From a virus (Duplodnaviria; Caudoviricetes): 64,000 nt of DNA. Of the stretch, positions 61,155 to 61,355 are shown one piece after another. A model generated the notes under the pieces. That model was not told the DNA's origin and made no database searches. It worked only from the letters and a program-made list of their open reading frames with translations. The position numbers were made by a program, and so were the translations under genes. The stretch spans positions 96,001-160,000 of IMG/VR virus record IMGVR_UViG_3300025858_000010. One strand, given 5' to 3'. Position 1 is the first letter of the stretch. The number at the start of each line of letters is the position of its first letter.

Positions 61155-61355
61155 CTACTCCCATTCTACATCTTTTTTATAAGAATTCACGAGTTTTTTA
61201 ACTAATTCCTCGGATTGTTCTCTGGTCATATTACCAACAGGAATAATGAATTTTAAAATACGTGTCGGTGTAATTGGAATGGATTCAGGAATGGGATCAT
61301 CATTCCAATCTTCTTCACCGTATGGATCAATTTTTAATTTTTCTTCGTTTGTCAT
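61155..61355 (-). CDS. 66-aa protein: DPYGEEDW tag plus copy of the portal clip segment
   Basis: KFIIPVGNMTREQSEELVKKLVNSYKKDVEWE versus portal KFVIPVGGLTRQQAEQQVYELMSEYHDDVQWD: 16/32 identical, ungapped. Confidence 0.8.
   Translation of the reverse strand: MTNEEKLKIDPYGEEDWNDDPIPESIPITPTRILKFIIPVGNMTREQSEELVKKLVNSYKKDVEWE

Follow-up and report, generated by a model that had tools for sequence, protein, structure and literature searches.

What is a phage doing with a second, much shortened version of part of its own portal protein, encoded far from the portal gene and joined to an acidic tag? The question is raised by a 66-codon gene, here called the mini-portal gene, in a 64,000-nucleotide stretch of viral DNA (the window, bases 96001 to 160000 of a virus record of 243 kb, complete according to CheckV). 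We found that the mini-portal protein is a conserved, selected and separately encoded copy of a strand-helix unit, joined by a flexible spacer to a tag that is common among the proteins of this phage. Its partner, the direction of its effect and the role of its tag we infer from phage T4. The window has a GC content of 26%, and metagenomes of activated sludge, bioreactors, wastewater and groundwater, generated in 13 studies, contain the same DNA. The nearest named relative of the phage is the 735-kb uncultured phage LR756501.

A strand and a helix of the portal clip in a gene of their own

The mini-portal gene follows a 5'-3' exonuclease gene, and the start codon of the one overlaps the stop codon of the other in an ATGA sequence (Table 1). 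The overlap suggests that translation of the mini-portal is coupled to that of the exonuclease, and the two genes are probably cotranscribed. At least 23 contigs, which come from many samples of wastewater and sludge, encode an identical mini-portal protein, and an E49D allele was found on 9 further contigs. In three runs labeled RNA-Seq (one of which was merely guessed to be RNA), 36 to 48% of the sampled words from window positions 60000 to 63000 were present, a signal for the region that was not placed on the mini-portal gene itself. A convergent gene carrying a T9SS sorting domain ends 8 nt from the mini-portal stop codon. The product of this neighbor (window 60808-61146, plus strand) is 112 aa long and starts like a signal peptide, and its Por_Secre_tail match is weak (24.6 bits, below the cutoff); the C-terminal sorting domain points to a Bacteroidota host.

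The similarity to the portal is confined to the second half of the mini-portal, where residues 35 to 66 align with residues 278 to 309 of the phage's own portal in a single ungapped BLASTP alignment with 16/32 identities and 26/32 positives. The preliminary description of this locus had reported a gapless match of the last 32 residues with 16 identities and mostly conservative changes, had placed the matching portal stretch at positions 38195 to 38290, about 23 kb away, and had described the portal-like segment as fused to a DPYGEEDW tag. BLASTP reproduced its figures, the two stretches are about 22.9 kb apart, and the tag is part of the same 66-aa ORF. When the whole 243-kb genome was searched, the mini-portal match was recovered at an E value of 2e-7 with the mini-portal as the query and 3e-6 with the portal as the query, and with both queries the portal and the mini-portal were the sole two places with a match to the clip strand and helix. 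The Pfam Portal_T4 and PHROG 213 (portal) profiles touch mini-portal residues 36 to 63 at subthreshold scores; for Portal_T4 (PF07230), the score is 14.2 bits against a cutoff of 22.9, and the match spans model positions 209 to 236 of 433, about 7% of the model.

The 66-aa protein has the first clip strand and helix alpha6 only: the wing, the stem, the crown and the complete three-stranded clip are absent, and it is unable to form a portal. Its N-terminal 34 residues had no significant similarity to the portal in a shuffle test, and a search in frame past its stop codon revealed no clip remnant. The portals of four relatives are 85 to 86% identical to that of the window, with an almost invariant clip segment. 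Judged by its sequence, the mini-portal is a fragmentary paralog of a well-known family; what is new is its architecture and its genomic behavior. The window portal itself ends in a long tail of ~90 residues, in which Gly, Ala and Gln are abundant and repeats of the GGAQFGGG type occur (window 37304-37600, portal residues from about 510 to 605), a tail that T4 gp20 lacks.

Table 1. Features of the mini-portal locus and the portal gene, with the sizes of mini-portal family members. Positions are those of the window.
Feature	Position	Strand	Description and basis
Mini-portal ORF	61155..61355	-	66 aa, ATG start, TAG stop; ORF list and sequence
Mini-portal core, aa 35-66	61158..61253	-	Like first clip strand (KFIIPV), tip (GNM) and helix alpha6 of portal; BLASTP E 1e-10
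Spacer from tag to core, 17 residues	61254..61304	-	Rich in Pro, Ile and Thr; family alignment
DPYGEEDW tag, aa 10-17	61305..61328	-	Motif scan; region predicted disordered
ATGA overlap	61352..61355	-	Mini-portal start codon/exonuclease stop codon; sequence
5'-3' exonuclease gene	61352..62320	-	322 aa, directly upstream of mini-portal; Pfam 5_3_exonuc_N E 4e-14; PHROG 107
Portal gene, T4 gp20 type	37304..39121	-	605 aa; Pfam Portal_T4 E 3e-72; PDB gp20 entries 3JA7 and 6UZC E 4e-30
Source-like portal segment, aa 278-309	38195..38290	-	Clip strand and helix alpha6; BLASTP, T4 mapping
Exonuclease-slot lineages (n = 10)			Window 66 aa, L033 73, L034 94, L051 108, L012 139, L050 141, L011 148, L047 172, L001 173, L035 185
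Members from portal-fragment search			P0080 95 aa, P0073 177, P0102 176, P0136 121, P0077 111

A family of mini-portals in one genomic slot

Relatives of the mini-portal were found by two routes only, exonuclease-anchored synteny in viral and metagenomic contigs, including LR756501, and a search with a portal fragment. With the mini-portal as the query, a search of 5.8 billion proteins for proteins of similar length returned only a near-identical allele, a one-residue variant. The portal fragment (residues 230 to 400), searched against 1.8 billion representative proteins, yielded the five members P0080, P0073, P0102, P0136 and P0077. In all, there are at least 14 distinct relatives of 66 to 185 aa, and at least 12 of them occupy the same slot, directly after the exonuclease gene. 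The core of the window mini-portal could be aligned with those of 14 other members, and the cores are 44 to 69% identical to the portal and to one another. The ATGA overlap was present in 9 of the 10 lineages checked (the window, L001, L011, L012, L033, L034, L035, L047 and L050), the postexonuclease position was also shown for L051, L067, P0080 and the contig carrying P0073, and synteny with the exonuclease held for every family member that was looked up on a long-enough contig.

The members are assembled from five portal-derived modules: an N-terminal segment (portal residues 58 to 83), the strand plus helix alpha6 (278 to 309), a hairpin with a DFWFP motif (310 to 333), a stem-helix piece (255 to 277) and a second copy of the strand. 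The order of the modules varies and is partly permuted; the tag stands before the core in some members and after it in others, and four members have none. L035 lacks the first strand and helix and keeps other portal pieces. The order tag, spacer, core is common to the window, L033, P0080, P0073 and P0102. P0080 has the full hairpin, L033 has a trace of it, and the window mini-portal stops right after the helix. The window protein is the most reduced form of the family, and part of an ancestral function could have been lost from it. In a tree of the 32- to 34-residue core, the cognate portals grouped together (82/89) and the window mini-portal grouped with L033 (98/79) and then with P0136 and P0077. 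No mini-portal was sister to its own portal in this tree, which is too short to separate a single origin from repeated ones.

The slot is empty, with no remnant, in 8 related loci, and L040 has a truncated copy of 43 aa. The mini-portal gene is therefore accessory and dispensable. The junction after the exonuclease gene is also a hot spot for inserts in relatives (L015 4473..5666, L051 414..1634 and the contig carrying P0073), among them IS605-type OrfB/TnpB genes and genes for a 4HBT thioesterase and an ABC-type ATPase. Elsewhere in the same gene cluster, the window encodes a full homolog of translation initiation factor IF-3 (window 59580-60086, plus strand), with IF3_N and IF3_C in the annotations of relatives, and this gene is kept in the cluster across relatives.

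The tag, the spacer and the predicted structure

A motif scan found the DPYGEEDW tag in frame in 37 ORFs of the genome, the mini-portal included, and the DPYGEExW form is carried by about one in eight of the phage's proteins. The 36 other tagged ORFs resemble the mini-portal in that their acidic tag of eight residues also lies in a flexible region. In the mini-portal, most of residues 13 to 27 had pLDDT values of <50 in an AlphaFold2 model made with the family alignment, in which both the tag and the spacer came out as disordered. The spacer that separates the tag from the core is 16 to 17 aa long in the window, L033, P0080 and P0073 and 22 aa long in P0102, so that four of the five tag-first members are alike in its length but not in its sequence. 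As a label, the tag has its nearest published analogue in the capsid targeting sequence of T4, by analogy only.

The core was modeled with pLDDT values of 74 to 87, with a helix at residues 45 to 59 and the strand region unpaired. As modeled, the mini-portal would not fold into a self-contained domain but would serve as an interaction module, with a sheet to be supplied by a partner. The model of P0002, a 139-aa relative, is a low-confidence one (mean pLDDT, 54) that resembles the clip in the order of its secondary-structure elements alone (strands, helix, three short strands, helices). Co-folding of the mini-portal with portal residues 230 to 400 (alignments of 15 and 69 rows, respectively), which was run without controls, gave a score of 0.00 and speaks neither for nor against binding.

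We also considered an origin of the tag in the portal, either from the IPFSKDFW motif of the clip or from the YSNNNEYGET loop, by descent or by mimicry. This idea was set aside as a lead only: shuffle tests were not significant for the window, and a p value of about 0.01 was obtained for P0080 only. A relaxed tag pattern, designed after the fact, matched 38 tags plus the portal IPFSKDFW and nothing else in the genome, and in relatives the tag and the motif occur side by side. Most tagged family members have the sequence [KN]R[IV][YF]S[DE][LI] just before the tag; residues 235 to 250 of the portal (window 38371-38418) read YSNNNEYGETSYVEN at the colinear position, ahead of stem helix alpha5, a post hoc and statistically weak resemblance.

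The equivalent piece of T4 gp20 and its partners

The alignment of the window portal with T4 gp20 is free of gaps from portal residue 246 to about residue 316. Portal residues 278 to 309, and with them mini-portal residues 35 to 66, thus correspond to gp20 residues 284 to 315, and since portal residue 278 equals gp20 residue 284, mini-portal residues 39 to 62 correspond to gp20 residues 288 to 311. In T4, residues 279 to 358 form the clip domain, which consists of three strands and helix alpha6 and is the attachment site for the large terminase gp17 and the neck (Sun et al. 2015, PMC4493910). Contacts with gp17 have been proposed at the clip tip for N291, M292, R295 and K296 (PMC4493910). As for the neck, portal-neck structures published in 2026 show the C-terminal arm of gp13 lying between the alpha6 helices of adjacent subunits and touching the clip strand (PMC12929587). 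The preliminary description had named the equivalent T4 region as the clip that docks terminase and neck proteins, and the residue mapping and these structures bear it out: mini-portal residues 35 to 66 are homologous to the segment concerned, and the same helix and strand hold the gp13 arm.

A short piece of the clip can act by itself. According to Lin, Rao and Black (1999), as cited in PMC4493910, a 24-residue peptide comprising gp20 residues 288 to 311 binds gp17 and inhibits DNA packaging in vitro. All residues equivalent to this terminase-binding peptide are covered by the mini-portal, in which N42 and M43 coincide with the gp17-contact residues N291 and M292; at the two other proposed contacts, the mini-portal has E46 and Q47 where T4 gp20 has R295 and K296. 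Unlike the T4 sequence, which is a part of the portal or a laboratory peptide, the mini-portal is natural and separately encoded, and it differs further from gp20 in doing without the other two clip strands, the stem, the wing and the crown and in having an N-terminal acidic tag. To our knowledge, the interface between portal and motor has never been seen at high resolution.

Small packaging-interference proteins that bind terminase subunits are made by phage satellites. These proteins and the mini-portal are alike in being small accessory proteins that are shown or proposed to occupy an interface of the packaging machine. They differ in that the satellite proteins are not derived from a portal, target the small terminase subunit and are encoded by a satellite rather than by a phage.

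The preliminary description had put forward three possible roles, those of a decoy, a packaging regulator and an adaptor. We tentatively favor the reading that the mini-portal is a soluble mimic of the clip that engages a partner of the clip and is tethered through its tag, although we give this reading somewhat less than an even chance. The protein would probably be made with the exonuclease and hence separately from the portal gene; the gene stands beside a replication-type gene and not among head genes. Its strand and helix would then engage a protein that normally reads the portal clip, for which T4 offers the large terminase, the neck adaptor and the neighboring portal subunit as candidates. 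We rank the large terminase first because, in T4, the equivalent peptide by itself binds gp17 and blocks packaging; the large terminase of the window phage is a gp17-like protein of 756 aa (L048:1051-3318). The tag would tie the complex of mini-portal and partner to a reader of the tag, and as an accessory factor, the mini-portal would thereby regulate or compete with DNA packaging and the assembly of the portal vertex. Besides the 756-aa protein, the genome has an ORF of 389 aa (G000:C1:68188-69357; L049 1150..2319) with an N-terminal ATPase domain of the T4 terminase type (Terminase_6N, E 1.6e-6).

The residues that the family conserves bear on the choice of partner. Family-wide conservation is seen at F36, I38, P39, E46, E49, L55, Y59 and W65, and the conserved positions fall into the strand (F36, I38, P39 and V40), the two acidic residues E46 and E49, and a hydrophobic face of the helix (A/S48, I/V52, L55, M/V56, Y59, V63 and W65), with the strand and the hydrophobic face kept as in portals. 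At residue 46, which corresponds to the T4 partner contact R295, 12 of 15 mini-portals have Glu and all 5 cognate portals have Gln, which indicates that the exposed face is under a constraint of its own and is not a plain copy, a point in favor of our preferred reading; the mini-portals also have Lys or Arg at the position of portal Y296. On the other side, such a conserved mismatch on the exposed helix would argue against this reading, since agreement with the portal would be expected there of a decoy that works purely by resemblance; the dispensability of the gene, and nonsynonymous change that is faster than in the exonuclease, also count against it.

In the main rival reading, the strand and helix would take the place of a neighboring subunit and pair with the beta2-beta3 hairpin that is free in an unassembled portal monomer; they would thereby chaperone the monomer, delay or poison ring assembly, or hide the monomer interface. 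We consider this unlikely. In T4, one subunit contributes one strand to the clip sheet and its neighbor contributes two, and the sheet is the only main-chain contact between subunits (PMC4493910); the window mini-portal has the strand and the helix without the hairpin, for which the portal is the only other source in the genome; and the conserved positions are those of the strand and the hydrophobic helix face. In addition, the larger relatives contain other interface pieces as well (the N-terminal segment, alpha5 and the second strand), whose T4 equivalents lie in the capsid interior or at subunit interfaces, and those pieces fit a portal subunit as the partner at least as well as the terminase. 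However, clips are nearly identical across the clade, so that a poison would hit the phage's own portal, and the dispensability of the gene argues against an obligate chaperone.

Purifying selection on a fast-evolving gene

Were the mini-portal a leftover from the duplication of part of the portal gene, nearly or wholly without function in this phage today and held open by chance or by its tag, its sequence should tell. Selection was estimated by the Nei-Gojobori method on a core of just 32 codons with synonymous sites near saturation. In all core pairs, pN was far below pS, and we conclude from this that the gene is under purifying selection. In the group of L011, L001, L047 and L051, pN was 0.04 to 0.15 and pS was 0.6 to 0.7 (omega, 0.03 to 0.14), and for the window core against all others, pN was 0.22 to 0.32 and pS was 0.54 to 0.94. 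Over the whole gene, the window and its nearest ortholog, L033, gave an omega of 0.27 at a dS of 1.5, compared with 0.05 for the adjacent exonuclease at the same dS. Nonsynonymous change in the mini-portal was 3 to 8 times faster than in the neighboring exonuclease. The mini-portal evolves several times faster than its neighbor and changes by indels and module swaps.

The comparison among homologs that the preliminary description had proposed gave low omega values (those of the L011 group and of the window against L033), and the decaying duplication fragment that it had envisaged is not what we see: the position of the gene is conserved, the frame is open, and purifying selection acts in relatives. 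The frames are open over 66 to 185 codons in 26% GC DNA, where an estimated ~9% of random codons are stops, and the estimated chance that a 66-codon frame would be open at this composition is about 0.3%. The window protein is nevertheless the shortest of the family, without the hairpin and other modules that relatives keep, the family has lost the gene at 8 loci and truncated it in L040, and a population sample of 15 copies from different samples, the window included, held only two alleles, which differ by the one nonsynonymous change E49D and carry no selection signal. Against these points stand the low pN of the window copy relative to pS in comparison with every relative, the tag-first layout and spacer length that it has in common with L033, P0080 and P0073, the conserved ATGA coupling, the small chance of an open frame and the lack of decayed sequence after the stop codon. 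A mere remnant therefore seems quite doubtful to us.

The least probable reading, very unlikely in our estimation, is that the portal piece occupies or misleads a portal-sensing host sensor such as a STAND NTPase of the Avs4 or Avs11 type: portals directly trigger Avs4, as the preliminary description had stated, and Avs11 as well (PMC13581612), and the gene looks like one in an arms race, with presence or absence in close relatives, fast nonsynonymous change and domain shuffling in a slot whose junction also takes TnpB and other inserts, but just 32 residues of a ~600-residue fold are copied, whereas the Avs sensors described in that study recognize extended fold surfaces, and no portal-piece decoy was found in the literature searched.

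Pieces of assembly proteins in other small genes

The literature that we searched for portal fragments and decoys described no stand-alone clip protein, and the cargo of the mini-portal, a piece of a virion assembly protein, sets it apart from nearly all other tagged proteins of this phage. Only 2 of the 37 tagged ORFs are paralogous to untagged virion genes, the mini-portal and a piece of the tail sheath (G000:C1:224663-225097), which is the only comparable cargo among the other tagged ORFs. This pair suggests a class of mini-genes made up of the tag and a piece of an assembly protein, and huge phages may repeatedly have made small genes by copying short interface segments of their assembly proteins. 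More speculatively, and with a low probability in our view, the huge phages of this clade could have a class of adaptors in which the copied interface piece addresses an assembly partner, or a host sensor of that partner, while the tag plugs into a hub shared with the phage's variable LRR binders. Such a class, if real, would amount to a modular, evolvable targeting system built from self-mimicry.

What the mini-portal itself would mean depends on its partner. If its partner is the terminase or the neck, the mini-portal would be the natural equivalent of the packaging-blocking gp20 peptide and a phage-encoded regulator at the portal-motor interface; should it bind portal monomers or host portal sensors, it would show huge phages controlling or hiding a conserved trigger of immunity. 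Either way, the family, at 66 to 185 aa, provides a small and tractable handle on the readers of the portal clip and of the DPYGEExW tag, and its shuffled and permuted portal modules clearly exemplify how pieces of an essential structural gene give rise to new small genes.

The tail-sheath piece is encoded outside the window, on the plus strand of locus L074, as a 144-aa protein that ends in the DPYGEEDW tag. Its residues 30 to 99 are 31% identical (E 2e-8) to residues 1190 to 1257 of the phage's own 1,288-aa tail sheath (G000:C1:185773-189639), the match lies in the tail sheath core domain (PHROG tail sheath), and a closer counterpart of 149 aa is present in LR756501. The latter phage also has extra portal-like ORFs that stand away from its portal gene: a 99-aa ORF (L032 1798..2097, minus strand) with a clip-like strand and helix and nine consecutive residues, GLTRQQAEQ, in common with the portal; a 342-aa wing-like paralog (L021 1243..2271, plus strand) that is 44% identical to portal residues 63 to 266; and a crown-like portal piece of 101 aa (W01:C1:15187-15387).
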